This document shows positions 11,987 to 34,475 of a DNA stretch of 64,000 bases, in pieces. This DNA is from an uncultured virus (IMG/VR IMGVR_UViG_3300042397_001885) (lineage: Duplodnaviria > Heunggongvirae > Uroviricota > Caudoviricetes), in IMG/VR virus record IMGVR_UViG_3300042397_001885. One strand, given 5' to 3'. Within the stretch, counting starts at the first letter, position 1. The number at the start of each line of letters is the position of its first letter. The translations under genes and the position numbers were made by a program. A model generated the notes under the pieces. That model had not been told where the DNA came from, did no database searches, and saw only the letters and a program-made list of their open reading frames with translations.

Positions 11987-12624
11987 TATACCTCCTCAAT
12001 AGAAATAGATATGTCCCATAGATCGTGATTAGACCCACCTCTTTTGACAACGTTGTAACTAAAGTCTGAGAAAAATACTTCTAACACTTCTGAATACTTA
12101 TTTAAACTAGTATATTTTCCAACAGTAAAACTTTGAGGCTTGTCGTAAGATAAAAATGCATAAAATGATCCTGGATTTGTTTTGTACCATTCTAATAGCT
12201 CTGATCCTCCAGCACCGCCATCTGCTGTATATTCTATCAAGGTGTGCTCTGCTGGAAATAGTCTTGGATTTTTTGGAGTATCTGGAACCAAAGAGTCTGA
12301 TGTTTGAATTCCATTTTCATCAAACTCTGGATCTTTGCTGTAAGATCTTGAAGGAAGCATGTCATAAGAAAAAGATATCTCCATCTTATCTGCAATATGA
12401 TAAGAACGCATATGACCATTTACCATTCTTTTTTTACTTTCAATTCTATTAGCATTAAAAGAAATGTCACTTCTATTATGGTCAGAAAGTATTAAGAAGT
12501 CTTGTCCTTCAACTCCAGAAATTTGTGGAACACCATTTAAAATTCCTCCAGAGTTATTTGAAAAAATAATTGCTTGTGGTCTTTCCCACTTTTTTCTAGA
12601 ATTTAAATATGCACTACTAACCAT
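11986..12624 (-). CDS. distal tail-like protein
   Basis: Immediately after the tape measure; RMVNGHMRSYHIADK, ends WDISISIEEV. Confidence 0.7.
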   Translation of the reverse strand: MVSSAYLNSRKKWERPQAIIFSNNSGGILNGVPQISGVEGQDFLILSDHNRSDISFNANRIESKKRMVNGHMRSYHIADKMEISFSYDMLPSRSYSKDPEFDENGIQTSDSLVPDTPKNPRLFPAEHTLIEYTADGGAGGSELLEWYKTNPGSFYAFLSYDKPQSFTVGKYTSLNKYSEVLEVFFSDFSYNVVKRGGSNHDLWDISISIEEV

Positions 12625-15600
12625 TAGTATCTATTGCTCCTTAAATTTCCTCTATTTTGCTGTGAAAGCTTTGCCATAACTACATTTGCAATATCGTCTG
12701 GTGAGGCATCTGTTCCAGCAACATTAACATTTAAGTTATATACATTATTATACATTGTTTCAGTAACTCTTGCATCACTAATTCCAGTATCATATCTTCC
12801 AGAATCACTAAAGCTAAACTTAGGCTCCTGCATGTTTGGCATTTTAAAAGCACCCATATTTATTGCTTCAAGCAGTGACATTCCATATTTATCCACCATA
12901 GATCTTCTTACTACAAATTCTCCAGGGGTGAGCATTGCAGATATACTGTCAGTATTTCCAGGTCCTGCAACAAGACCTCCACTGTTATATCCAGAAAATG
13001 CTTTTGATGTAGAGGCTCTTGCTTCTTTTACTAACTCTGTAATCTCTTGCCTTCTTGCTTCTGAAAGAGCCCAATAAACATTGTCCATCTCGTCTGCTTT
13101 TACTGTTCTAGCAGTTGGATTCGAATAGCCCAACTTTCTGGCTATGTAATGCTGCTCACTTCCATTTCCATAAGAAACTTTTGAGTCTTTTATTCCAGCA
13201 TTGAATTGAGCTTTTGTATAATAGCTATAAACAGGTGGTGGTGGCGGTGGTGGCGGTGGAGGTGGTGGCGGTGGAGGTGGTGGAGGAGGCGGTGGTGGAG
13301 GAGGCGGTGGTGGTGGAGTTACTGGAGTTACAGCAGCTACAGGAGTTGGAGCAGCAATTACTGCAGCAGCTCCTCCTCCGCCACCAGCACCCAATGTTGT
13401 ATTTGCAGCAGCTCCAGGATTTCCAATGTCAGCTGCTGCAGCTGCTGCCTGAAGGGTATTATAGGCATCAATATAATTTTGAAAATCTATTAAAGCTTGA
13501 CCAGTTAACCCCTGTGCTCTTAAGGCTTCAATATTTTGTCTCATTTTTATTAACAAAACTTGCTGTTCTAACTTCATTCTTTGATCATCTAGTACTTTTT
13601 GTGCAAGAGAGTTAGCATAAAGTTGGTCTTGAATTAAAATCATGTCTTGTTCATTTTTGTAAATAGTCTCACCAAACTGAGATATTTGTTCTGTAATTTG
13701 CTTTCTTGTCATCATTACACCATTTACAGAAACTGTTAACGATTCAAGTTCTTTTTGTCTTTTTGCTTCAAGTGCTGCCCTTGCGTCCTCAATTCTAAAC
13801 TGTGCCTCTTCTTGTTGCATTGCACTTGCTGCACCTGCTGCAGCAGAAATATCTCCAGATGCAAGTGCTGAAGCTAGGTCTAATCTTGAACGATCTTTTT
13901 GAGCAATTCTATCATTTGCATTAGCAACCTTATCAAGAGCCTTTACTCTATCATCATAAGTTGTATTAATCTTTTCTTCTTCTTTTGCTAACAAATCAAG
14001 AGCATGGTTTCTTAAACTTATTTGACGTTGTATTAACTCATTTTCTCTTTCCATTCCAGAAAGGGAGTTTTGTAATGCAGAATTCTTAATATTTATTGCT
14101 GAAGATTCTGCATCTATTGCATCCATTGTTCTTTCTTGAGAAGTCTGTGTTAAATAATCAAGTGCTCTTTGAACATTTAGCTGAGAAGTTAGCTGTTTTA
14201 CATATTCCTCCCTTTGTGTAGTAGTCATTGCAAGATACTTTTCTGTATCTATCATTCCCAAAACTTCTGCCCCAGCAGCAGCAGCGATTGGAGAAATTGC
14301 ATTAAAGTAATTTTGCATTTCTTGAGTTTGTTGTTGCATGTCTGTAATTTCCATTGCAGCTGCTAGCTTAGCCTGTGCCAAAGTCTGCTTATTTAGCTCT
14401 GCAATATATGCTTTTCTTTGAGCAGTGTTCATAGCAAGGAATGCTTTTTGATCAATCATTCCTTCAATGTCTGAGCTTATTGCAACACCTAGTCCACCTA
14501 GTGCAGCAGAATATTTTTGCATATCGCTAGTTTGTTTTTTGGCATCTGCAAGTGCCATAGTTGCTGCTAGCTTAGCTTGTGCTACTGATTGTTTATTCAG
14601 CTCTGCAATGTATGCCTTTCTTTCTTCAGTAGTCATAGCAAGGAATGCTTTCTGGTCAATCATTCCTTCGATATCTGAAGTTATTACAACACCCAAAGAG
14701 TTAAGTGCTTTTGAATATTTTTTCATATCTGCTGTAGCTTTTTGAGTTTCTGCTAAAACTGTTACTGCATTTAATCTTTGTTGATACGCAATTTGCTTTT
14801 GCATTTCTTTAATCAATTTCTTTCTATTTTCAGTAGAAAGATTCATGTATACATCTTGAGGAATCATGCTAAGGGCTTCTATATTGTTAGCTGTTGCAGC
14901 ACCTTTAACTAGGTTTGTGTAATTTTTAAGAACTTTGTTATTCGTAGTAGCATCTTTTAAGAAAGTTTTTGCTTGAGCCTTTTTGCTAGGAGGCTTTGTT
15001 CCGCCAGAGCTACTACCGTTGTCATCAGTATTAACAACTGTCTGAGGAATTACTGACTGGATAGCTTTTTGTTGATCTGCTACAGCTTTTTTCCAAACCT
15101 CTAGTCTCTTGTAGTAGGCTGACATTTCTGCAGGAGCTCCTGACTGAGGAATAGTTGGTGCATTTCCAACTGACATAGTTGCAATGGTAAATGATGCTAA
15201 ATATGATTTTTGCTCACTTGCAGGAAGTGCACCAAAGGCATCTACTTCTGCCTGTGTCATGTCGTACCCAGTACTTTCAAATACAACGCTCTTTACTTTA
15301 GCTTCATCTCCACCTAGAGAATCAAACATTTCTTGAGCTTTTTTATTTGCAGCCTCTAACTCTTTAACTGGATCTTTTCCAGGTCCTTTGAGTGCGGTAT
15401 AGATTGCCTGAGCATCTGCTCCCTTTGGCATAAGTTCTGCAATTTTATCAATAGCATCTTTTTGTGTTTTATAGAATGCATCTACATCTTGTTCTTTATT
15501 ATCTCCAGAGAAATATTCCATTGCTAGAGATAGGTCATATCCTTCTGGAAGACTATTTAAAAGCTGTGCAAATTTTTCAACATTAGCAGTTGACTCTGTT

Positions 15601-18600
15601 ATCTTTGCTTGATCTTCTGCACTTACCCCTGAAATTCCACTTACTAGTTGAGAAGTAGTGACACCCATCTTATTTACATTAGGAAGTGCAGCACTAACAT
15701 TGCTTGCCATAGTATTTGCTCTTGCAGCCTGTTGTTCAGGAGTTAGGTTCACAAGATTAGATGCTGCAGATTCAGCAAACTTTCTAATTTGTTCCTTTTC
15801 TGCTTCAGCCCTAATTTCTTCTGAGGTTAAGCCATCTGCTGCTGCTGTAACTAGTTCATCTGCTATTTTTGCATAGATGTCTGTTATGTCTCCAATTTTT
15901 GCTCCAGCATTTTCTTCAGTTATTCCATCCAAAGTGCTTGCCATAATTCCAGTTACTACATCTTTTTGAGCTTGATCTAGCTTGTCCATATCTTTTTGGA
16001 ACAGCTTATTTGAAATACTATCAGTTGTTACATTAGATGCAACTGCCTGAGCAGTATCTCCCTTAAATCCAGAAAGCACTAACTGGTCTTTAATTCCTTG
16101 TGCCTGTGCATCTGCACTTGCTCCAATGTCTATAGCCTTCTTAACTCTTTCATACTCAACTTGTCTCATTTCATTAATTTGTTTTAAAGAAGATTCGAAC
16201 TGAGTATCTGTTATTAATCCTTTAGACCTTTCTTCATTTAATAAAGATTCGGCATTGTTTAATTCTTTTAATGTTTGAATAGTTGCTCCAAATGATTTGG
16301 ATGACTCTGCAACCTGTTTTTGTTGATTTTTTATTGCTAGATTGTAAACTGCTATACCAGCCACTAATCCAACTACAGCACCAGCTACAGCACCAACAGC
16401 AGTTCCAACAACTGGAACTACTGATCCTATTGCACCACCCATTGCTGCTAGCTTTGCAGTTGATGCAGCGATTGCAACTCCTGCACCTAAACCTGCAGCT
16501 AACCCAATTCCTCCATACTTTACATTGGAACTAGTTCCAGCAGTATTATTTCTTTTTGCCTCTTCAGCTTTTGCTTTTTCAAAATCTGAAACCGTTGAAG
16601 AGTCTGCAGCTGCCTGTCTTTTAGAAATTTCACTAATCATTGCTTGAGATCCACTTTGAAGCCTTCCAGATCTAATAAGAGCTACTGTTTTTGATTTTAA
16701 TAATGAATCGTCTAATGCAAAAGCTATTGCAGATCCAAAAGACTCTGCTTTTTTAGGATCCATTCCATCTGCTATTGCAAATGTTAGCATTGATGCAACT
16801 TTCTCATACCTTTCTTCAGAAGAAGCACCCTTTAAGTCTTCTACAAGCTTTTTACCCTCATCAGTATCAAAGAAAGGCATCATTTCAGCAGCACCTTGTG
16901 ACTGCTCTTCTGTAAATCTAAAGTCTTGTACTGAAGATCTTGTTGACGCAAATCCATAACCAGTTGCAGCACTAATTGTTTCCATTCTATTTGCTGCCCC
17001 ACCAAGGTTTGACCCAAATTCTGCAGCTGATTTAGCAGTATTATCCATATCCTTTTTAAACATTAAGAATCCTGCAGCAGCAGCTCCTACTGCTAGGGTT
17101 AGTCCTCCTAAAATTGGACCAAACTGTTGAAGCATTGGAAGAATAGCCATAGCACCTCCAGCAGCCATCATCATTTGCTGTTGCTTTGGATCTTCTACAA
17201 AACCTGAAGCCATCATTGGAATCATTGAAGCCATCATCATTCCTTGACCAGCTTTTTGCATTCTTTCTGCTCTAAGAGCCTTTGCTTCAGGAGTTCCCAT
17301 AGCTGCCCTTGTGTTTGCCACAGCCTGTTTTGCATCTTGCATTCTTGGAACAACATTCCATTTTCCATAATCTTTAATAGAATTTTTTAAATTATTTGCT
17401 CCATTTGCAACAGACTTACTTGTATCTTTAAAAGAAGTTAACATTGGTTTGGCTGCATCTGAAATTGCTTTTCCAGATTCTTTATATGCGTCTAATATAT
17501 ATTTTGGACCTGTTTTTAATGCTGCCTGGACTGGTGCAATTTTTTCAGCAGAACCCATTCCACTAAAGACATTGTATCCAGTGGCGGATCTTGATTGCTG
17601 GTATGATGCTGAAGGTCTAATTCCTTTTATTCTTTGAGCATTTGTCAATGAACCAAGAGGGTTAACATAGTCTCCAAGACCATACCTTCTTGTTTCTCCG
17701 TTATTAATTGCCTGTAGCAAAGGAAGATTTTTTGCAGTAGCATCTTTATTAATTACAAACTCTCCAGGAGTTAGCATTGCAGGAACTGTATCAGTATTTC
17801 CTACACCTGGAACAAGAGTTCCACTATTTGCCTTTAGCACTCCTTGGAATCTTGAAGCACTTGTATATATCTCTCCACTTAAACCTCTAATTGAAGTAAG
17901 GTCTCTAAGCATAATTGCAGAGTATGCTTCATCTGCATTTTTATATCCAGATGCTCTTGCTAACTCATCTAATTTTGATCTATCTCCAATTCTAGAAGGT
18001 AGTTTAAAGGAAGACACTCTTGCAATAGCTGACTCAACAGCATCATCATACATTTTTGTAAATTGTGCTTTAGTTAATTTTTCACGAGCAATAGAATCTC
18101 CAAGCATTTTAACAAAGTCTTTTGATGCCCCTGTTTTTTCAATAACCTGTGTAATTGCTTTTGCTGTATATGCTCCAGTATTTGTTGCTTCATTTCCAAA
18201 ACTAATTTCAGATCCAGTAGCTCTTCTAAATACACCTTTTGAATTTCTAATTAGCTTAACACCTGCAGCACCAGGATCAATTGTTGCAAGTCTTCCTCCA
18301 CGAGTTGAAATAATATTTCCAGCTGTTGCATCCATATCTCCAAGCATTGATGAGGCAGGAATTTGCTTGACAAGTTCTTTAGTAGAAAGAGTTGATCCTG
18401 ATTTCATTCCTGGAATCATTGGAGCAGTTGTTGCAAATATTTCTCCTTCAGGACCGTCCATTCTTACAATTCTTGATCCAGGGGTTGCAGTTCCTGCAAT
18501 TGCTCTTCTTGCCGCATTTCCAATTAATTCTGCCTGAGCTTCTTGAAGAGTTTGAAATGGCTTAACAAACATTTTTCTGCCATTAACCTCATAAACTCCA

Positions 18601-21600
18601 GCTAGGCTTCTAAACCTACTACTATGTCCTTCTGACTCTGCAATCTTTGTTCCAGAGAACTTTTCAAATTGGTTTTTTGCAACAACACGATTTGGCATCA
18701 TTCTGCCAAAATATTGCATACCTCCAACAGCTCCACCAGCATTAAAATCTTGAACTTCTGCATGTGCATTGTTATATGTGCGACCTGCATTATATCTTTG
18801 ATTTGAATACGATAATCTTCCAGGTATAGGTCGTGACTGTCCTGCATTTATTTCAACTCGTGTTCCATCACTTGCAGTATATATGTATGTACCACCTCTA
18901 GGAGCATTTGGAACAGGTTCAAACTTTGGATGTATGCCACCAGTATCACTAAATCTAATAGAATCCTTAATGTATGGTTCAAACCTTTTCATTGATCTTG
19001 AACCAATTTCTGTATTCATTATTCTTGCTGTAGACAACAATCTTTCTTGAAGAATAGTTGAAAGATTTGCTGCCCTTAATGAGTCAACAATAATTCTTCC
19101 GTATTCAGGATCTGAAAATTTATGAGATTCTGGAGACCTTTTAACAATTTCTATAGCCTTAGATCTTAGTGCTGAGTCAATTCTTGAATAATGAGCAGGA
19201 TCAAGGTTAGCTTCATCTAATATGTGTTTAAATGGAGAGACTGGAGTTGAGGTTCCATGAAGTTGAGGATTTAGTGCAAAAAGATCTTCCATTTCTTTTC
19301 TAGCAACGCCAAGATTAGGGTTGCTCACTCCACGCCTCAGACTATTATTAAAGTCAAACTCTTTTCCATAGCTGGTATCACCCTCAAGTGCTGGACCCTC
19401 TCTTTTATATCTTGGTGTTGGAGTGATAAGTCTTGCCTTTTCACCCATAACATTAGCTGGAGCTCCTAGTGCTACCAAGTCTGCCGTTAGTTCATCTATA
19501 ACACTCTGTGGTGCGTTACCAACGCTTTGAACATTTCGAATAGGTCCTTCCTGTACATCTTGTTGAGCTCTTTGTTGGTTGGGCGATGTTCGTCTTGCTG
19601 TCACATTTTTTGGTTTTAAAGCTCTTTGGTTTTTAATACGATCTTGTCTTGATAGCAGTGAAAGATTTCCAAATCTTTCTTCAAGACTTATCCCTTTAGC
19701 CTGAGCTTCAGGTCCAAACATTCTAAGATATCTTTCCTTAATAGCCTGATTTCTTGCTTGACTATTTCTTAAAACCATTGATCCAAGATTGTATCCAGGA
19801 ATCATTCCGCCCTTATTAAATTTATTTCCACTATTGATTGCATCAAGAAGTGCATAATTTTTTGCAGTTGCCTCTTTGTTTACAACAAACTCTCCTGGAG
19901 TAAGCATTGCTGGAACGGTGTCAGTATTTCCAACTCCTGGAACCTGTGTTTCTCCAGATACAAATATTGGTCCACCAGCATTTCTTCTAAGGGCTCTAAC
20001 TGTAACAGAACCAGTTTTACCTGCACCTGCTGCAGCTCCTGCCATACCTGCAGTTTTAAATGCTGGATTAAATGCTGCTGCCTGTGCCTGTGCTGATATA
20101 AGAGTTCTGTACTCTGCAGTAAGCTTTGCCACAGCTATTCTTGCAATATCTGTAGAAGTAGCCTGTTCTAGCATTGCTGCTTTAGCAATATGTGTAGCAG
20201 ATGACAATTGCTTTGCAGCAGTTGCTGCTTCTAGTTCTTCAATTGATAAATATTTGGTAGATTGCGTAAGTGTTCTTATTGCTGCTATTGGACCACCCTT
20301 AATAAGTGACTTTACGAAAATTGCAATTCCATGACTAATTTTTCCAAGTGTTCCAAGCAAGTTAATTAAAAGACCAAGAAACATTGTTCCAGCAGGAATT
20401 ACGACACCAACAAGGACTGCTGCTATTGCTGCAAATTTCTTTTGACCATCAGATAGCCCATTAAATTTTTCAACAATAGTTGTAAGAAAATTTACAAAAG
20501 GAATAGCAAGTTTAACAAATATCTCTCCAATTGGTTCAAGAGATAGCTTTAATCTTTCTACTGCTCCAATAAGCTGTGTTCCTAAAGCATTTTCTACAGC
20601 ACTAAGTTCTTTTTCTGCTGTAGTTTTTAATGCTGCAACATCATACTCCATTAATTGTAAAACTTGACTTGCTTGAGATCCATCTCTAACAATATTTTCA
20701 AACAAAGCTCCAAGTCTTGCATACTGATACTTTCCAAAAACTTTTTCTAATGCCTGTTGCTTTGAAAAATCATCCAAGCCTTTAAGTGCCTCACCAAAAG
20801 CAAATACTGTTCCCATCAAATCTCCACGATTTGTAGAAATTATCTTATCTAGATTAATTCCAAAACTTCCCAAAGTTTCTGTTGCTGCTTTTGTTGGATT
20901 AATTAAAGATGCAAGACCAGACTTTAGTGCGTTAGCACCCTGTTCTGCACTAACACCACCTTCTTGCATTGCTGCAAGGAATACTGACATGTCTCGTACA
21001 TCTCCACCAAGACCTTTAATAACTGGGGCAACTCTTGGAATTGCTGCAGACAAGTCTTGCAAAGAAACTACTGTTTGATTTTCAACCATATTTAAAAAGT
21101 TAATTGTATCTGCAAGGTCTTCTCCAGAAAGTCTAAAAGCAGATTGCAGGGCTATTGTAGTCTTTAAAGCTTCTTGCTGCTCCATCTGACCAAGAGTTGC
21201 TAGTCTTGTTGCTTGTCTTGTTGCATCTATTAAGTCTGCATTTCTTGCACCAGAAGCTGCTGCATTTGCAGCCATTCCAATAGTATCTTTTACTGCAATT
21301 CCATATTTTGTATATTCTTCAGCAAGTTGTCTAACTTGTGCAATATTTTGATTTACTTCTTCTGGAGTTGTAAAAGCATCTCCATAAACCTTTTTAAGAT
21401 TAACTAATTCTTTTTCAATATCCATAAAGGTTTTACCTGCGACTGTTCCTAAAACAGTTAAAGGTACGGTAAAGCCAACCATAAGCTGACGACCAGCCCA
21501 CTGAACATTTTTACCAAAGTTAATCATGTGGGTTGTTCCCTGTCTAAACATTGTATTTAGAAGGGCTTGTCTTTCTGCTGCAATTGCTGCTTTAGAGGCA

Positions 21601-22031
21601 TAGGCATCTAGAGGTCTAATTGCAAGAGCTTCACCCATACCTTGTGCAGAAGCACCAGTTGAAATAAATTGTGTTTGCAAGGTAGAAGCTCTTCTAGCTG
21701 CAAGAGACATTGTTTCTGCAAACGCTGCACTATTTCTATTAAATGCAGAACTAAAAAATTGACCTAAAGTTCCTCTTCCTCTTTTTAAAGTGTTGTCAAG
21801 ATTTGCAGCAGCGGAGTTTAACTTTACAAACTCTGAAGTAAAAACTCCAGTTGAATTTATTGCTTTTGAAAGATCTCTTGTATAGTCAGTAGCAAATTTA
21901 GCTTGGGCTAGATTTCCCTTGGAAAGGGCTGAATTAAAGGAGTTAATTTGTAGTTGGAGCTTTTTTAGCTCAGCAGCAGCAGACCCAGTGTTTATCTGGA
22001 TATCAATAATGCCTTTAGCTACTCCAGCCAT
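12624..22031 (-). CDS. tape measure protein with internal cargo domains, 3135 aa
   Basis: Follows the chaperone pair; TP901-type core (GANALKSGLASLINPT), Ala-rich helices, hydrophobic segments, three GNTD.(V/I).AMLTPGEFV motifs. Confidence 0.93.
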   Translation of the reverse strand: MAGVAKGIIDIQINTGSAAAELKKLQLQINSFNSALSKGNLAQAKFATDYTRDLSKAINSTGVFTSEFVKLNSAAANLDNTLKRGRGTLGQFFSSAFNRNSAAFAETMSLAARRASTLQTQFISTGASAQGMGEALAIRPLDAYASKAAIAAERQALLNTMFRQGTTHMINFGKNVQWAGRQLMVGFTVPLTVLGTVAGKTFMDIEKELVNLKKVYGDAFTTPEEVNQNIAQVRQLAEEYTKYGIAVKDTIGMAANAAASGARNADLIDATRQATRLATLGQMEQQEALKTTIALQSAFRLSGEDLADTINFLNMVENQTVVSLQDLSAAIPRVAPVIKGLGGDVRDMSVFLAAMQEGGVSAEQGANALKSGLASLINPTKAATETLGSFGINLDKIISTNRGDLMGTVFAFGEALKGLDDFSKQQALEKVFGKYQYARLGALFENIVRDGSQASQVLQLMEYDVAALKTTAEKELSAVENALGTQLIGAVERLKLSLEPIGEIFVKLAIPFVNFLTTIVEKFNGLSDGQKKFAAIAAVLVGVVIPAGTMFLGLLINLLGTLGKISHGIAIFVKSLIKGGPIAAIRTLTQSTKYLSIEELEAATAAKQLSSATHIAKAAMLEQATSTDIARIAVAKLTAEYRTLISAQAQAAAFNPAFKTAGMAGAAAGAGKTGSVTVRALRRNAGGPIFVSGETQVPGVGNTDTVPAMLTPGEFVVNKEATAKNYALLDAINSGNKFNKGGMIPGYNLGSMVLRNSQARNQAIKERYLRMFGPEAQAKGISLEERFGNLSLLSRQDRIKNQRALKPKNVTARRTSPNQQRAQQDVQEGPIRNVQSVGNAPQSVIDELTADLVALGAPANVMGEKARLITPTPRYKREGPALEGDTSYGKEFDFNNSLRRGVSNPNLGVARKEMEDLFALNPQLHGTSTPVSPFKHILDEANLDPAHYSRIDSALRSKAIEIVKRSPESHKFSDPEYGRIIVDSLRAANLSTILQERLLSTARIMNTEIGSRSMKRFEPYIKDSIRFSDTGGIHPKFEPVPNAPRGGTYIYTASDGTRVEINAGQSRPIPGRLSYSNQRYNAGRTYNNAHAEVQDFNAGGAVGGMQYFGRMMPNRVVAKNQFEKFSGTKIAESEGHSSRFRSLAGVYEVNGRKMFVKPFQTLQEAQAELIGNAARRAIAGTATPGSRIVRMDGPEGEIFATTAPMIPGMKSGSTLSTKELVKQIPASSMLGDMDATAGNIISTRGGRLATIDPGAAGVKLIRNSKGVFRRATGSEISFGNEATNTGAYTAKAITQVIEKTGASKDFVKMLGDSIAREKLTKAQFTKMYDDAVESAIARVSSFKLPSRIGDRSKLDELARASGYKNADEAYSAIMLRDLTSIRGLSGEIYTSASRFQGVLKANSGTLVPGVGNTDTVPAMLTPGEFVINKDATAKNLPLLQAINNGETRRYGLGDYVNPLGSLTNAQRIKGIRPSASYQQSRSATGYNVFSGMGSAEKIAPVQAALKTGPKYILDAYKESGKAISDAAKPMLTSFKDTSKSVANGANNLKNSIKDYGKWNVVPRMQDAKQAVANTRAAMGTPEAKALRAERMQKAGQGMMMASMIPMMASGFVEDPKQQQMMMAAGGAMAILPMLQQFGPILGGLTLAVGAAAAGFLMFKKDMDNTAKSAAEFGSNLGGAANRMETISAATGYGFASTRSSVQDFRFTEEQSQGAAEMMPFFDTDEGKKLVEDLKGASSEERYEKVASMLTFAIADGMDPKKAESFGSAIAFALDDSLLKSKTVALIRSGRLQSGSQAMISEISKRQAAADSSTVSDFEKAKAEEAKRNNTAGTSSNVKYGGIGLAAGLGAGVAIAASTAKLAAMGGAIGSVVPVVGTAVGAVAGAVVGLVAGIAVYNLAIKNQQKQVAESSKSFGATIQTLKELNNAESLLNEERSKGLITDTQFESSLKQINEMRQVEYERVKKAIDIGASADAQAQGIKDQLVLSGFKGDTAQAVASNVTTDSISNKLFQKDMDKLDQAQKDVVTGIMASTLDGITEENAGAKIGDITDIYAKIADELVTAAADGLTSEEIRAEAEKEQIRKFAESAASNLVNLTPEQQAARANTMASNVSAALPNVNKMGVTTSQLVSGISGVSAEDQAKITESTANVEKFAQLLNSLPEGYDLSLAMEYFSGDNKEQDVDAFYKTQKDAIDKIAELMPKGADAQAIYTALKGPGKDPVKELEAANKKAQEMFDSLGGDEAKVKSVVFESTGYDMTQAEVDAFGALPASEQKSYLASFTIATMSVGNAPTIPQSGAPAEMSAYYKRLEVWKKAVADQQKAIQSVIPQTVVNTDDNGSSSGGTKPPSKKAQAKTFLKDATTNNKVLKNYTNLVKGAATANNIEALSMIPQDVYMNLSTENRKKLIKEMQKQIAYQQRLNAVTVLAETQKATADMKKYSKALNSLGVVITSDIEGMIDQKAFLAMTTEERKAYIAELNKQSVAQAKLAATMALADAKKQTSDMQKYSAALGGLGVAISSDIEGMIDQKAFLAMNTAQRKAYIAELNKQTLAQAKLAAAMEITDMQQQTQEMQNYFNAISPIAAAAGAEVLGMIDTEKYLAMTTTQREEYVKQLTSQLNVQRALDYLTQTSQERTMDAIDAESSAINIKNSALQNSLSGMERENELIQRQISLRNHALDLLAKEEEKINTTYDDRVKALDKVANANDRIAQKDRSRLDLASALASGDISAAAGAASAMQQEEAQFRIEDARAALEAKRQKELESLTVSVNGVMMTRKQITEQISQFGETIYKNEQDMILIQDQLYANSLAQKVLDDQRMKLEQQVLLIKMRQNIEALRAQGLTGQALIDFQNYIDAYNTLQAAAAAADIGNPGAAANTTLGAGGGGGAAAVIAAPTPVAAVTPVTPPPPPPPPPPPPPPPPPPPPPPPPPPPPVYSYYTKAQFNAGIKDSKVSYGNGSEQHYIARKLGYSNPTARTVKADEMDNVYWALSEARRQEITELVKEARASTSKAFSGYNSGGLVAGPGNTDSISAMLTPGEFVVRRSMVDKYGMSLLEAINMGAFKMPNMQEPKFSFSDSGRYDTGISDARVTETMYNNVYNLNVNVAGTDASPDDIANVVMAKLSQQNRGNLRSNRY
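13233..13316 (-). repeat. 28 consecutive proline codons in the tape measure
   Basis: 84 nt of CCN codons with mixed third positions. Confidence 0.95.
14150..14950 (-). repeat. four copies of a 68-aa (204-bp) repeat in the tape measure
   Basis: Equivalent Leu codons at 14232/14436/14640 and Met codons at 14661/14865; core SDIEGMIDQKAFLAM.T..RKAYIAELNKQ. Confidence 0.85.
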
Positions 22032-22402
22032 TAATTAACCACCTCATAATCCAAGCCATTTCCAATTCCAAAGCCAGCACGTTGTGCAGCTTTGCCTTGA
22101 AGGGCAAGAATGTCTCTAGGATTCGATGTAGCACCTTTGCTAAAAGCTCTAGCCTTTATCTCTTCCCATTTATTCTTAGACGTATCTGAACTATCTAAAT
22201 CAACGCCCTGTAAAGCTGCCATGAATTTTCTACTTTCATATTCTTGACTATTTTTAGCTTCTAGTATTGCTACCAGTTCGGGCATTGATATAGAGTCCTC
22301 CAGTTCAGAATAGTTCTTCCAGAATCCCAGAAGAAATACTCTTGATTCTATCTCAGCAAGATCTAGTTCGTCCCAACTAGAGCCGCTGCCAGTGCGTTTG
22401 GG
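22031..22402 (-). CDS. tail assembly chaperone, C-terminal (-1 frameshift) part
   Basis: The frame of ORF 22031..22285 stays open upstream (WDELDLAEIESRVFLLGFWKNYSELEDSISMPEL) to a TGA just before the slippery site. Confidence 0.85.
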   Translation of the reverse strand, partial: PKRTGSGSSWDELDLAEIESRVFLLGFWKNYSELEDSISMPELVAILEAKNSQEYESRKFMAALQGVDLDSSDTSKNKWEEIKARAFSKGATSNPRDILALQGKAAQRAGFGIGNGLDYEVVN

Positions 22403-22698
22403 TCATTCAGCTTAATTCCTGCAGCCACTTCAATAACCTTGTACACTGTTGGCAAGTCAATGAGCTCTTCTAGCTGCTCTTTGGTTGCCAGTTCTGGGTT
22501 GTATTGCTTCATAGCAATTACAGCACAGTTTAATAAAAGATCCATAGACTTTACATTGTCTTCTGCAATTTTTGGATCACTAATTTTTTGAAACTCTTTC
22601 ATAAAATCTCTAAGTAAAGAGATTTTTAGGGGTTTCATAGAAATAGCAGAACCATCTAATAGTTCTACTTCTACAACTTCATATACGCTAGTTGCCAT
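22363..22698 (-). CDS. tail assembly chaperone (gpG-like)
   Basis: Between major tail and tape measure; AGGAGG RBS. Confidence 0.85.
   Translation of the reverse strand: MATSVYEVVEVELLDGSAISMKPLKISLLRDFMKEFQKISDPKIAEDNVKSMDLLLNCAVIAMKQYNPELATKEQLEELIDLPTVYKVIEVAAGIKLNDPNALAAALVGTN
22396..22402 (-). other. -1 ribosomal frameshift slippery heptamer C CCA AAC
   Basis: XXXYYYZ heptamer, correctly phased (GAC CCA AAC), at the first position where the -1 frame opens. Confidence 0.85.
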
Positions 22699-27486: not shown

Positions 27487-28884
27487 TTAATGATATAGGT
27501 CAGCGGAATTTAGGAAACGTCCACCCCACATAGACCCTTTTCTTATTGTATTGCCCTGAACGACCCCGCCAAGATCGCCAGACTTACGGACAGCTGTATC
27601 GTCTTCTAGACCGTCTACACGCTTTCCAAACTCTTCAAGATTGCCTTTTACCGCAGAAATTTCTTCATTGGTTGTATCAACTGACTTTTTGATACCTGCA
27701 ATTTCTTCGTTTAGTGATTTAATTGTTGAAACAAGTTCACTCACTGCCTCTGTTACTGAAACCTTAATTTCGTCAACAGCTTTTACAAGCTCAGAATCGG
27801 TTGTATCTTCTGCAATAACAGACTTTTCAACTTCAACGTCATCAGAAGCAACTTCTTCTGCAACTTCTTCTGCAGATGCTTCTTCTGGATCAGCAGACTT
27901 AGCTACTGTTTCCTCAACAGCGTCAACTGCGTCAACTGACTTTTCTACGGTTTCTTCGGCAGGAGCTTCAGCAACAGCTTCTTCAGCTGCAACTTCTTCA
28001 ACGGTGTCTTCTACTACTGTATTTTCTTCTGACACGTTGTTCTCCTCCTTTATATTGTTTTCCGCAATTGACGCATTATTGTCAATCGCTGTTTCAGACG
28101 TTTCGCCTGAAGATTGTGGGGTTTCGGAAACTTCATCAGATTTTACTAGGTCTGTTACACCAATAAACTTATTTAAGAGTGACTTAACTGTCATAGCTTT
28201 CTCTGCATCCTTCGTCTCTACAAAACCAATATTTTTCATGCTAACTTCACATGAAGGACAGCTTGAATCTTCAACCTCTGAAAGTCTGACGAGACCGTCA
28301 TTCTCACACCAGTAGACATTTTCAAGATCTGCTTTTGCAATTATACCATCATTTTGTTCATCCTTATTAATCTTCTGAATAGACACAACATTTGCAAACT
28401 GATTTGCAGGATTGTCTACCAAGGATAGCTCATGAAGTTCATAATCTTTTACAATTCTTACTGTCTTATCAATGTTTTCATCCCAAGAATTTTCTGCATC
28501 TTTAATTACTCCGCCAATTGAAAATCCTGAAAGAGTACCATCAAGAACCTTTTCCCAAGTATCTTGAGCACCCTTAGAAATGTAAGCATCTACATATACA
28601 CCATTATATAGTTTTTCTGTAGACTTGTCAAAAAACTTTTCTTGTCTAAAATTAATTACTTTTCCAACTGCAATTGCCTGATGCATTTCTCTCAAATTAC
28701 CACGGAATGTTTCAAAGGCTTTTATACTTACATTTGTTGGAACAATGTCAGACTGCTTATCAATATTATCAAGCGTAGCAAATCCAGAGACGAGTCTACG
28801 CTCTTCATCTATCTTGGCTATTGGCATAGATAACTTTATATCATCGTTATCCGAAGTCCAGTAAGCCTTGTTTAAAGCAGTCAT
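27487..28884 (-). CDS. prohead protease fused to an acidic scaffold-like C-terminus
   Basis: LREMH, GFSIGG and ELSLVDNPAN (HK97 protease); E/A/V-rich linker and coiled coil. Confidence 0.9.
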   Translation of the reverse strand: MTALNKAYWTSDNDDIKLSMPIAKIDEERRLVSGFATLDNIDKQSDIVPTNVSIKAFETFRGNLREMHQAIAVGKVINFRQEKFFDKSTEKLYNGVYVDAYISKGAQDTWEKVLDGTLSGFSIGGVIKDAENSWDENIDKTVRIVKDYELHELSLVDNPANQFANVVSIQKINKDEQNDGIIAKADLENVYWCENDGLVRLSEVEDSSCPSCEVSMKNIGFVETKDAEKAMTVKSLLNKFIGVTDLVKSDEVSETPQSSGETSETAIDNNASIAENNIKEENNVSEENTVVEDTVEEVAAEEAVAEAPAEETVEKSVDAVDAVEETVAKSADPEEASAEEVAEEVASDDVEVEKSVIAEDTTDSELVKAVDEIKVSVTEAVSELVSTIKSLNEEIAGIKKSVDTTNEEISAVKGNLEEFGKRVDGLEDDTAVRKSGDLGGVVQGNTIRKGSMWGGRFLNSADLYH

Positions 28885-30875: not shown

Positions 30876-33800
30876 TTAAACCAAATAGGTGTCCCAAGAT
30901 ATGTCATTTAATATTACAACAGAATCAAAACTGACACTAATTACGCTATTATCGTCTCCAACTCCAGAAGAAAGACCTGCATATGTGTTAAAAATTTCTT
31001 TTCCATCTAAAGACAAAACAGTAACTTCAAGAGATTCTTCATTTAATATCTGTTGCCAATTGAAAGATGTAGACCCAGATCCAGACCAGTATTCCCAAGT
31101 TCTATTGTCAACAAGATCCCATTCGTCAAAAACAATTAAGTTTTGTTTAATAGGATTTAGTTCCATAAAGCTTGCAACATTGTCAACTTTAACTCCAGAA
31201 TATATTTCAATCTGAGCAAGAATTCCATTTAAAGGTATAGAGTTTTCCTGCAAAGCTATTGCTATATAGTTCCAGGTAAGTGGCTCAATTACTATATCAT
31301 TTACAAGCTTTCCATTTAAAAATGATTTTGCATCTAAAAACTGATCTCCAGTAACAGAATCAACTATTGAAAAGAATGCTCTTTTTCCATCTTCTTCAGG
31401 AATTAGAATTATGTCGTAAGAGTTGTTTGAGCTAAATATCTTTCCAATCTTTTTTCTTTCAGTAAAAGAGCTTGCCTCATCATACATTAAAAACATTTGA
31501 ATTCCTACCATTTCTTGATTAACCTTTAAAGTTTGGTTAACTGGAATTGACAACCCTTTTATTAAATTTTCGTCAACTTCTGGCAATACCTGTATTCCAG
31601 AGTCTCCTGCTAGATACAAATATGGAGATGATTCTGTGTCAATCACTACTGGAACATTTCTTTTGTAAACATACTGATTTTCATTTTTAACTATTGGATA
31701 AAACTTACCTGCAGTAGGAGTATTTATTGAATAAAATTGTCCTTCATCAAACGATAGACCTGCAATCCCCATATTTTTAACATTAACATTTTCTGTTTTT
31801 ATACCTTTAGAGGAAATTTCAATATGAATTGTGACATAATAATTTGAAAATCCTGCAATATTTTTTGGAACATACATAACTGTTTTATCATTAATTTTAT
31901 ACTTTGTGTTATTTGGAGAAGTAATTTTTCCTAAATCTAAAATTTTATCAATTCCAATAATCTCTGTATTAGCAAACTGTGTATATGTGGTTTTTCCTAT
32001 TTTAGAAACATCCTGCAAGGTTACAAAAACTTTTGTAGATAATGATTCTTGATACAAAGAAGACAGTTCACTATGTTTTGAAAATGTTGAAGATGGTGTA
32101 TCTATATTAAACTGTAGCATATCTAAGTCATACTTTAAATCTCCATTATTTTGAGTTATATATCTTCCAAAGTAGGAAAGGGGGATGGAATTTTCCCAGT
32201 AACCAGATACTCCTATGTCTAAAACCATTGAGGTATTGGTAGCTTTAGGAAGAAGTGTATAGGATCCAATATAGTCATAAAATTTTGAATTAAAGTTTTT
32301 GATAGCAAAACCGTAAGAGTCAAACATTTCTGACCCATCTTTATCTGTAAAGAAGTCGCTATTTATTGTTAAAGAAAATATTTTTCCTAAAAACACATCT
32401 TCATCTTTTCCTGCAAAATTTAAAGACAAGGTATCTGGTCTTGAAAAGAATGATCCAACTACAGAGTTATAAGCCTGTTCTATTTTATTAAAATCAATTC
32501 CCACTGCAAAAAAAGAATTTTGAGAAATTGTTTCTGATTTTAATACAGTTTCGTTATAAGAATATTGAACACTTGCAGAATCAATGAAAACTTCAAAAAC
32601 ATCTGAGCTAGTATTATTTGATATATATAATATAGACTGTCTACTTGTAACATCCTCTGATGTTTTTAAAACTGAATATAGCGATCTTGTTTGATAGTTT
32701 GTCTGATTTAGCTTTGAAAAATATACTGTTCCAAAAGATTCATTAAATAAGTATTCATAGCTTGGAGCCATGCAGATAAAAGGATAATTTTCATCTTGAA
32801 GTTCATAATTATCTTCATAGAAATTTATACTAGCCAGTGACTTTTGATATTCTGAACCAATTCCAGTGTTAGTAAATAAAACCTGTGGAAGACTATATTC
32901 AGGCAAAGATATTCCTTTTGAATTTGCAACTATATTATTGTAAAATCCATCTTCCCACTTTGTTCTATCGGGATACCTTATTGTAGAGCTGTAGCCAGAA
33001 AATGGGAAGTCTACATAAGAAAGATTTCCGTTTGATGATGAAACTATGTTATCTTGCTCTTGAACTCCTTGTCCAAAAACGTATCTCTTTTTTGCAACCT
33101 GCTCTGCAACAGCATATGGGAATATTGAAAAAGAGTCAATCTCGTATAAATATATTTCTGCGTCTGTGTAAAATCCTAAGAAGTCTTCATCTTTTATTGG
33201 GAATGTTTCAATATTTAAAGATTCTATTGGTATAGATATAACCTTTTCTCCATTTATCATTAAAAATATTTCACTTGGACTTTGACAAAAATGCATAAGC
33301 ATTGGTCTATACCATTTTCCAATAAAATAAGACTTTGTATAATTTCCTACAACGATAGAAATAAATTCTTTATCTATGTATATGCCATCACTGGATGTTA
33401 GTGGTCCAAATATTCTATTCTTTTTAGTTTTTTCTGGATTAATTCTTAACCAAAACTCTGTTGTCAAAGTTTTATTATTTCCTGATTGATTTAAAAATCC
33501 TTTTCCAGGAAATATAAGGGAAGGAAAGTTGTAATACTGATCTTCTGTTAAATACAAAAATTCATACGAAGCTCCTCCGTCTATAGAATACATATACTCT
33601 GTTGAAGAAGATCCTCCATCTATCAATATTTCTTCTAAAGAAGATCCGTCAAGAATTTCAGTTAGGACTATAGCATCTTTATTTATTCTTATATTTCCGC
33701 TTGACCCATAAACCATTGGAACTCCTGCAAGTTTTGCAAAGAGAGAATTGCTTATTGATGTCACATATCCATTTTCTGACTCTGTACTAAGACCGTAGGG

Positions 33801-34475
33801 GTCTAAAACTGTACACTCTATAGATTCTGGAAAGTCTATAAGACTTCTAATATTTGATGGAAGAGGTTGTGGAGATATTCCAGTGCTTACTGAATTATAA
33901 GGTTCTGACCATTGCCCAACAGATACTCCATTTATATATACAGATGATTCATCTTCTAAAGCATCTACACTTGGATAAAATCCAACTCTTATAAAGGGAG
34001 TAAAAGTATCTTCCGAAAACTTAACTGTATGAGAAATTTTTTCCCAGTTATTCACCTTTAATGACAAATATCTTTTATAAACATACTCTCCATCAACAAT
34101 AAAACCAATATCTAAATAAAGAACATCGGTTTCTCCAGGAATGTAAATATAGGAAGAAACGCAAACGCTTCCTTTTCCAAGATCTAATTCTGAATAAGAA
34201 ATAGCAGAAGAAAGCGAAACTTCCATTTCTTTTGGAGAGTCTGTAGAAAGATAAATTTTATTAACATCTAAATCATCAAAAGGATACCCTGAAAGTGTGA
34301 ACGTTGCAGATGCATTTATAGTAGCATTATCAAAGTCCCAGTTGGATTCCGTAACCTCTTTTTCTGCATCTGAAATTAAAGAAACAAAATAGTTTGGCTC
34401 ATCCATTGACCACAAAGCTACAGGATGCTCAGCATATATTCTGGAAGCATAAAGATTTGAACGTGTGTAGGACAT
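30876..34475 (-). CDS. large virion-associated protein with LamG/ConA-like segments
   Basis: HPVALWSMDE start, TTEFWLRIN...WYRPM.MH...LMINGE pattern. Confidence 0.6.
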   Translation of the reverse strand: MSYTRSNLYASRIYAEHPVALWSMDEPNYFVSLISDAEKEVTESNWDFDNATINASATFTLSGYPFDDLDVNKIYLSTDSPKEMEVSLSSAISYSELDLGKGSVCVSSYIYIPGETDVLYLDIGFIVDGEYVYKRYLSLKVNNWEKISHTVKFSEDTFTPFIRVGFYPSVDALEDESSVYINGVSVGQWSEPYNSVSTGISPQPLPSNIRSLIDFPESIECTVLDPYGLSTESENGYVTSISNSLFAKLAGVPMVYGSSGNIRINKDAIVLTEILDGSSLEEILIDGGSSSTEYMYSIDGGASYEFLYLTEDQYYNFPSLIFPGKGFLNQSGNNKTLTTEFWLRINPEKTKKNRIFGPLTSSDGIYIDKEFISIVVGNYTKSYFIGKWYRPMLMHFCQSPSEIFLMINGEKVISIPIESLNIETFPIKDEDFLGFYTDAEIYLYEIDSFSIFPYAVAEQVAKKRYVFGQGVQEQDNIVSSSNGNLSYVDFPFSGYSSTIRYPDRTKWEDGFYNNIVANSKGISLPEYSLPQVLFTNTGIGSEYQKSLASINFYEDNYELQDENYPFICMAPSYEYLFNESFGTVYFSKLNQTNYQTRSLYSVLKTSEDVTSRQSILYISNNTSSDVFEVFIDSASVQYSYNETVLKSETISQNSFFAVGIDFNKIEQAYNSVVGSFFSRPDTLSLNFAGKDEDVFLGKIFSLTINSDFFTDKDGSEMFDSYGFAIKNFNSKFYDYIGSYTLLPKATNTSMVLDIGVSGYWENSIPLSYFGRYITQNNGDLKYDLDMLQFNIDTPSSTFSKHSELSSLYQESLSTKVFVTLQDVSKIGKTTYTQFANTEIIGIDKILDLGKITSPNNTKYKINDKTVMYVPKNIAGFSNYYVTIHIEISSKGIKTENVNVKNMGIAGLSFDEGQFYSINTPTAGKFYPIVKNENQYVYKRNVPVVIDTESSPYLYLAGDSGIQVLPEVDENLIKGLSIPVNQTLKVNQEMVGIQMFLMYDEASSFTERKKIGKIFSSNNSYDIILIPEEDGKRAFFSIVDSVTGDQFLDAKSFLNGKLVNDIVIEPLTWNYIAIALQENSIPLNGILAQIEIYSGVKVDNVASFMELNPIKQNLIVFDEWDLVDNRTWEYWSGSGSTSFNWQQILNEESLEVTVLSLDGKEIFNTYAGLSSGVGDDNSVISVSFDSVVILNDISWDTYLV

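Follow-up and report, generated by a model that had tools for sequence, protein, structure and literature searches.

Probable exchange of segments at a repeated joint module, and a putative kinase-like cassette, in a siphophage tape measure protein from an uncultured virus

The window analysed here is a stretch of 64,000 nucleotides from an uncultured virus of the Caudoviricetes (IMG/VR record IMGVR_UViG_3300042397_001885), in which a single unbroken open reading frame (ORF) of 3,135 residues was identified from its sequence as the tape measure gene of a siphophage. The best overall explanation of this protein is, on balance, that of a modular tape measure with exchangeable cargo lying between copies of a conserved module, named here the joint, and acting while still tethered. 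Its plan would comprise a TP901-type N-terminal core, a first joint (J1), a cargo slot (cassette A, a half-joint and cassette B), a second joint (J2), a long helical ruler, a third joint (J3) and a short C-terminal tail (Table 1). The work follows a note made from the sequence without database searches (the original prediction), in which the protein was regarded as a polyprotein with cargo between 39-residue repeats that mark points of cleavage and/or recombination.

The assignment as a tape measure, already made in that note, was borne out by a match to PF10145 (PhageMin_Tail, TP901-type) at residues 235-433 (E 1.3e-27, 97.4 bits against a cut-off of 33.2) and to phrog_10030 (E 5.4e-96), and tape measure PHROGs span residues 1-690; an NCBIfam search with the whole protein gave no match. 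All three repeats (R1, R2 and R3) fall within the ORF. Translation of the minus strand returned exactly the peptides quoted in the original prediction, including the near-identity of R1 and R2 (33 of 39 residues) and a third copy near the C-terminus (residues 3021-3060). R1 and R2 are identical at 92 of 117 bases, and only 20 of the 33 identical residues keep the same codon, which points to selection at the protein level; a recent duplication or gene conversion was rejected, because the other 13 of these residues differ in codon. R3 has diverged further, its identity to the extended R1 being 36%, and 23 columns are invariant over the three copies. R1 and R2 are separated by 671 residues of non-ruler sequence of distinct composition, in agreement with the idea that the repeats delimit cargo. 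The description of this interval as Arg/Pro-rich applies to cassette A (Arg 9.7%, Pro 6.9%), whereas cassette B is less extreme (6.9% and 2.8%), the N-terminal core having 3.9% and 1.7%.

The 39-residue repeat is the core of a longer unit of 55-75 residues, to which the name joint was given. A family search with residues 690-1450 as the query (E<=0.001 among 8,000 scored candidates) matched 2,151 tape measures of 1,724-5,487 residues, nearly all of them with PF10145. A simple pattern found 1-8 joint copies in each of 120 listed proteins, and a hidden Markov model (HMM) of the joint raised the count to 615 copies, spread over 124 related tape measures (1-8 in each, five being most common). The consensus derived from 569 instances reads GG-x-[IV]-Y-A-x-N-G-G ... 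P-G-x-G-x-T-D-T-V-P-A-M-L-T-P-G-E-F-V-V-N-K-x-A-T ... L-L-x-A-I-N-x-G and is followed by a Gly-rich stretch; a looser form has [YF] for Y, x-x-G for x-N-G-G and F-V-[VI]-N-K for F-V-V-N-K. Over 585 unique copies, conservation reaches 95-100% at each of the core residues D, P, A, L, G, E, F, V, L and N; these figures are partly circular, since the HMM was seeded from a regular expression, although the seeding pattern is absent from 44 of the 615 copies. In the family the first joint always lies after the N-terminal core and the last one about 65-140 residues from the C-terminus. Gly-rich linkers border the joints throughout the family; all three copies in the present protein have both the core and the Gly-rich flanks, and the family-derived profile scored each of them far above chance (Table 1). 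The joint was tentatively predicted to form a beta-hairpin followed by a helix that ends at the conserved Asn-x-Gly, with a predicted local distance difference test (pLDDT) score of 30-51. A PHROG of unassigned function, phrog_35029, matches the joint three times in the tape measure, and neither Pfam nor NCBIfam contains a joint model. By these sequence comparisons, some 55-75 residues constitute the joint, a conserved and so far uncatalogued module. In a full-text search of a limited literature collection, no paper was found that describes the joint, reports the exchange of cassettes in tape measures or mentions a kinase in a tape measure.

The original prediction had proposed that among relatives the content between the repeats should vary while the flanks are conserved, and this is what was found. 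An N-terminal core is common to 102 proteins, and the slot after their first joint is occupied by 57 different, unrelated segment clusters. When the 124 proteins were divided at every joint, the 702 resulting segments fell into 228 clusters, including 145 singletons; recurrent segment types have different neighbours in different proteins, and the insert type of the present protein occurs in five. Three relatives (P0005, P0007 and P0008) are collinear with the present protein from end to end at 54-56% identity, and three others (P0034, P0113 and P0118) are 61-63% identical over residues 1-746, after which similarity is lost. In 32 of 38 relatives the collinear N-terminal alignment ends at residues 730-769, and in the other six at about 800, 840, 1100 (three) and 2880.

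The same borders are visible in the DNA, where similarity to close relatives ends at the end of R1 and restarts at the DFNAGG half-joint. Alignments by blastn to contigs L009 and L010 cover residues 1-736 and then 1094-1445, and those to contig L011 cover residues 1-749 and then 1095-1432, while contig L007 retains cassette A at 74-79% DNA identity. In more distant contigs the joints are islands of 74-88% DNA identity in otherwise unalignable sequence, which makes the repeats plausible recombination points, as the original prediction had suggested. All ten related contigs examined encode the tape measure in one unbroken ORF (2,022-3,455 residues). Being constant in protein and largely in DNA, the joint very probably serves as a boundary for recombinational segment exchange, and from these comparisons it is very probable that related phages exchange whole segments at the joints.

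Cassette A has no detectable kin beyond close relatives, since a search of 1.84 billion representatives with the insert gave six relatives, all matching its second half. Searched against Pfam, the 671-residue insert matched only DUF7863 (E 0.16), and against the PDB it gave one chance match (E 0.52). In a structure comparison of the subdomain at about residues 903-1015, five of the top six rows were ATP-cone regions of ribonucleotide reductase (RNR) or NrdR (Z 5.8-7.7, 80-89 residues aligned, from a poor model); no ATP-cone match was found by Pfam, and the highest value in an Atlas search of cassette A was 0.85, recognition staying under the useful level, so that the resemblance may be taken as a lead only. 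The sequence DFNAGG..QYF..NRVV that follows cassette A repeats the post-core flank of the joint without the core, and was therefore named the half-joint.

Cassette B likely has a protein-kinase fold, as judged from its predicted structure. The AlphaFold2 (AF2) model contains an N-lobe of the kinase type (strand-strand-helix-strand-strand, the helix at model residues 77-94) and a helical C-lobe. When this model was compared with 48,161 chains using VIA-align, all of the first 32 rows were kinase-fold proteins: CtkA (3akj; Z 6.4, root-mean-square deviation 5.0, 166 residues aligned, below the caution line of Z = 8), CotH (5jda; 6.3) and PI4KII-alpha (4hnd; 6.0), then MavQ (7m7a), Vps34, ATM, Fam20C and HipA. 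BFVD returned weak rows, among them phage proteins with PI3K/PI4K domains, and one Atlas cluster, with PF00454 on 16% of its members, was the sole hint at family level. The order of motifs is that of the atypical kinases: a lysine in a strand (K1157, in F-V-K-P), a glutamate in the next helix (E1168, corresponding to helix C), the D-x4-N loop (D1232-x-D1234-x4-N1239) and a metal-binding aspartate in Asp-x-Gly (D1252-P-G). Cassette B differs from these kinases in having D-P-G in place of D-F-G, in its Z values of only 5-6.4 and in the lack of similarity at the sequence level. All of the motifs are kept in P0126, P0127, P0128 and P0075, proteins that are 25-34% identical to cassette B, which suggests selection on catalysis; in P0113 they are lost. 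For catalytic activity, the model and motifs leave the balance even; if active, cassette B would probably phosphorylate some component of the host that is located at the cytoplasmic membrane or inside it. It was assigned to no Pfam kinase family. The segment-wise structure prediction proposed in the original note thus gave a kinase-like fold for cassette B and a mostly low-confidence model for cassette A.

An HMM of the kinase domain matched 19 of the proteins collected. The kinase profile also matched, in part, a second site at residues 2003-2119 of the tape measure ORF, in the ruler segment of contigs L009 and L010. Another protein, P0127 (2,221 residues), weakly resembles a cytidylyltransferase at its N-terminus (21.1 bits, the cut-off being 21) and contains a kinase-like domain at residues 530-784 and a single joint near its C-terminus, at residues 2090-2165; no PF10145 match was found in it, and the joint and the kinase domain may thus occur also outside classical tape measures.

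In the proposed working of the protein, the joint would be a neutral element for hinging or docking, by means of which foreign folding units could be strung into the ruler with tail assembly undisturbed. The cargo would leave the virion within the tape measure, which would be ejected before the DNA, and would do its work without being detached; cassette B, with every catalytic residue kept, might then act as a kinase in the host. The position of the cargo between hydrophobic segments at residues 531-562 and 1638-1658 would be consistent with a loop lying to one side of a membrane. The closest precedent is the 5,002-residue tape measure gp96 of Thermus phage P23-45, which is fused to a working virion RNA polymerase; the proposal made in the source is that this enzyme works at the entry pore without separating from the tape measure (PMC10770324). 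Both are giant tape measures carrying an enzyme, putative in the present case; the cargo of gp96 is N-terminal and of proven activity, whereas the present cargo lies between joints and its enzyme is a predicted one. With moderate confidence, the cargo may be considered to be delivered into the host, and by analogy with P23-45 and with tape measure biology in general, delivery might precede phage gene expression.

Several points weigh against tethered, enzymatically active cargo strung between joints, besides the partial circularity of the conservation figures, the low scores of the predicted joint and the Z values below the caution line. The cassette A model is poor (pLDDT 46), with a confident helical unit only at about residues 903-1015. 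The model of cassette B is mediocre (mean pLDDT 58, predicted template modelling score 0.61), and its catalytic-loop region (model residues 146-201) falls below pLDDT 50. A Foldseek search against the PDB placed mostly kinases in the top rows, with a best E of only 0.02. None of the kinase families looked for (CotH PF08757, PI3_PI4_kinase PF00454, HipA_C and Pkinase) was found in the insert at E<=10 or in P0125-P0128 at E<=0.01, no kinase was found for cassette B by NCBIfam and PDB sequence searches, and the alignment A2 profile matched in the PDB only Douge gp16 and coiled-coil noise, with no kinase among the matches. Three or six copies of a folded 30-kDa domain would hardly fit the lumen of the tail tube, and a kinase requires ATP, which is supplied only by the cytoplasm.

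The joint is also present in cultured phages. Searched by tblastn with the extended R2, it was found in 425 of 50,697 phage records, nearly always under features annotated as tape measures, the main groups being Mycobacterium (246), Gordonia (99), Brevundimonas (9), Nodularia (9) and Salmonella (9). The same collection contained no close relative of the tape measure gene (megablast gave only matches of 57-68 bases), and a tblastn search with the 749-residue R1-insert-R2 stretch matched three Ralstonia records, in the joint region only. The number of joints follows the class of tape measure: ordinary ones (lambda gpH, Solent, SBP9) have one, about 70-120 residues from the C-terminus, those of actinophages two or three, and giant ones three to eight. 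One joint is found in the tape measures of Solent (971 residues; joint at 851-902) and SBP9 (940 residues; 807-863), and one, together with a lysozyme domain, in that of Brevundimonas phage Gurke (2,358 residues). In mycobacteriophage Douge, gp16 (PDB 8ZDO; 1,699 residues) has two joints (962-1012 and 1413-1461), and gp17 of Gordonia phage BatStarr (2,142 residues) has three (952-998, 1627-1675 and 1968-2013). These two actinophage proteins are multi-joint tape measures like the present one, but they are shorter than its 3,135 residues, and no kinase cassette is known in them. In the description of the Douge structure, only residues 1,658-1,699 of gp16 are resolved, and the joint is thus without a solved structure (PMC13033339).

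Phage lambda gpH appears to carry one diverged joint beside its glycine-rich cutting region: residues 727-789 (of 853) were aligned by BLASTP to the joint copy of Solent, and this assignment rests on the Solent bridge, the direct match of gpH to the joint profile being weak (7.6 bits). No joint was found by profile search in T5 pb2 (1,219 residues), which is a cut tape measure like gpH. According to one source, gpH is cut near its C-terminus, within a glycine-rich region, to give gpH* and gpHC (from about residue 690 onward; gpHC is about 14 kDa) by a catalyst and at an exact site that are both described as unidentified, pb2 is cut into pb2* and pb2C, the C-terminal piece being said to degrade the cell wall, and only these two tape measures are known to be cut (PMC12617516).

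The idea of cleavage in the present protein had been attached in the original prediction to short N-x-G strings at domain borders. All eight of them exist: RRNAGG, KFNKGG, GYNLGS, RYNAGR, DFNAGG, KANSGT, GYNSGG and RRYGLG lie at residues 682, 737, 746, 1079, 1095, 1400, 3014 and 1448, respectively. Six are situated in joint flanks and two at the border of cassettes A and B. KANSGT and GYNSGG correspond to the Y-A-x-N-G-G part of the joint and RRNAGG to the upstream G-G, while KFNKGG, GYNLGS and RRYGLG belong to the linker beyond the joint core. The enrichment of N-x-G in the tape measure is modest: [FYRA]-N-x-G occurs eight times against 3.25 expected (18 of 1000 shuffles reach eight) and N-x-G-G five times against about one expected (3 of 1000 shuffles reach five). 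The strings thus exist but, being flanks of the joint, do not form a separate cleavage code; N-x-G as an Asn-based self-cleavage signal was not adopted, as the strings are joint flanks and the lambda copy lacks the Asn.

An alternative to tethered cargo is that of an injected polyprotein, in which every joint or Gly-rich flank would be processed and cassettes A and B freed as effectors at tail maturation or ejection; this is considered unlikely. It draws on lambda, where the cut lies in the Gly-rich region just before the diverged joint, which has the same relative place as J3 here, and on the size of the piece that such a cut would release, since J3 and the C-terminal tail together make up 144 residues, near the size of gpHC. 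The Gly-rich linkers that border joints family-wide are also compatible with processing. Among 22 shorter joint-bearing proteins inspected, three (P0135, P0180 and P0231) start within 10 residues of a joint, which may reflect a natural split of the genes there or else contig ends or miscalled starts. Lambda gpH differs from the present protein in having only one joint and no cargo. On the other side, the cutting of gpH still lacks a named site and catalyst, and the cut T5 pb2 is without a joint. The tape measures of the ten related contigs are encoded as unbroken ORFs. Pfam found no protease domain in the present tape measure; the head maturation protease gene of the window (27487-28884) is annotated for head maturation, and a host protease is a possible processing enzyme. 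The strongly conserved residues of the joint belong to the predicted hairpin and helix rather than to the linkers, as would be expected of a folded unit more than of a simple cleavage signal. By analogy with lambda, a cut near J3 may be entertained, with somewhat less than an even chance, and cuts at J1 and J2 are doubtful. Less likely still are joints that are self-processing or recognised by a protease, by which true injected polyproteins would release an exchangeable effector array (the Arg/Pro-rich module and an active atypical kinase) in the host, in advance of the DNA and before phage gene expression. In that case the same chemistry would explain the unsolved conversion of gpH to gpH*. 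The literature collection searched contained nothing relevant on the processing of multi-joint tape measures.

It is improbable that the inserts are structural spacers only, with the joints acting as assembly nodes (for oligomer register or docking to the tube or a chaperone), the inserts tuning tail length or packing and the kinase-like domain being a non-catalytic relic. Such a role would suit a slot with 57 unrelated segment types, in a family where most segment clusters are singletons and few segments have a recognisable domain; it would also suit the mostly low-confidence model of cassette A and the loss of catalytic motifs in P0113. However, the Lys, Glu, D-x4-N and D-P-G motifs are kept between proteins of low identity to cassette B, and enzymes are found in other tape measures, namely the proven RNA polymerase of P23-45 and the annotated lysozyme domain of Gurke. 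An origin of the repeats in chance similarity or an assembly artefact is practically negligible and was ruled out by the unbroken ORF, the 61-82 bits scored against the family profile, the recurrence of the architecture in independent contigs and the uniform GC content of the tape measure segments (0.373-0.384).

Tape measures are usually viewed as rulers that play a passive part, apart from an occasional motif for wall degradation. Those with embedded enzymes are an already known kind, to which joint-bounded exchange and a kinase-fold cassette would be added; the only published parallel found by the limited literature search was the fused RNA polymerase of P23-45. If modular exchange with tethered cargo holds, a family-wide, recombination-ready joint, by which phages swap folded modules including a kinase fold, would turn the lumen of the tail into a hold for ready-made cargo proteins directed at the host. 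The joint is, moreover, a concrete, mutable element adjoining the long-unsolved cutting region of lambda gpH, and cultured phages with two or three joints, such as Douge and BatStarr, make the question of cleavage directly testable.

The coordinates of the gene and its parts are given in Table 1.

Table 1. Parts of the tape measure gene, with positions in the window
Feature	Position	Strand	Remarks
Tape measure gene, whole	12624..22031	-	intact ORF, 3,135 residues, no Cys
N-terminal core, residues 1-669	20025..22031	-	PF10145 at residues 235-433; hydrophobic membrane-like segment at 531-562; common to 102 relatives
Joint J1, residues 670-744	19800..20024	-	core R1 at residues 697-735, nucleotides 19827-19943; 81.7 bits
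Cassette A, residues 745-1094	18750..19799	-	Arg/Pro-rich, mostly low-confidence model; different segment in close relatives
Half-joint, residues 1095-1118	18678..18749	-	DFNAGG..QYF..NRVV; joint C-terminal flank without core
Cassette B, residues 1119-1385	17877..18677	-	predicted atypical protein-kinase-like fold; K1157, E1168, D1232-x-D1234-x4-N1239, D1252-P-G
Joint J2, residues 1382-1453	17673..17888	-	core R2 at residues 1407-1445, nucleotides 17697-17813; 80.5 bits
Ruler segment, residues 1454-2991	13059..17672	-	hydrophobic segments at residues 1638-1658 and 1861-1901; tandem units at 2440-2643; proline run at 2906-2933
Joint J3, residues 2992-3069	12825..13058	-	core R3 at residues 3021-3060, nucleotides 12852-12971; 61.4 bits
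C-terminal tail, residues 3070-3135	12627..12824	-	common to 25 relatives

The gene is situated in a siphophage structural module with genes of the portal, protease, capsid, Ig-domain tail protein and minor tail proteins. The gene order is that expected around a tape measure, with the Ig-domain tail protein and small chaperone-like ORFs upstream and a 212-residue ORF and a 1,618-residue minor tail protein downstream. Two small ORFs directly upstream of the tape measure gene (22031-22285 and 22363-22698, minus strand) occupy the usual site of the tail assembly chaperone pair. A 1,199-residue ORF located between the portal and ribonucleotide reductase genes (30876-34475, minus strand) has no PHROG match at E<=1e-5.

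The tape measure contains only four Trp residues. By analogy with lambda and Douge, its C-terminal tail might be the part that docks in the tail tip. In the ruler, a stretch at about residues 2650-2800 is kept in 37-38 relatives. Three tandem units of 68 residues (14103-14714, minus strand) with the common motif ..GMIDQKAFLAM..R.AYIAELNKQ.. are also found there and look like a length-adding duplication. Shortly upstream of J3, a run of 28 consecutive prolines (13233-13316, minus strand) is followed by a Tyr-rich stretch.

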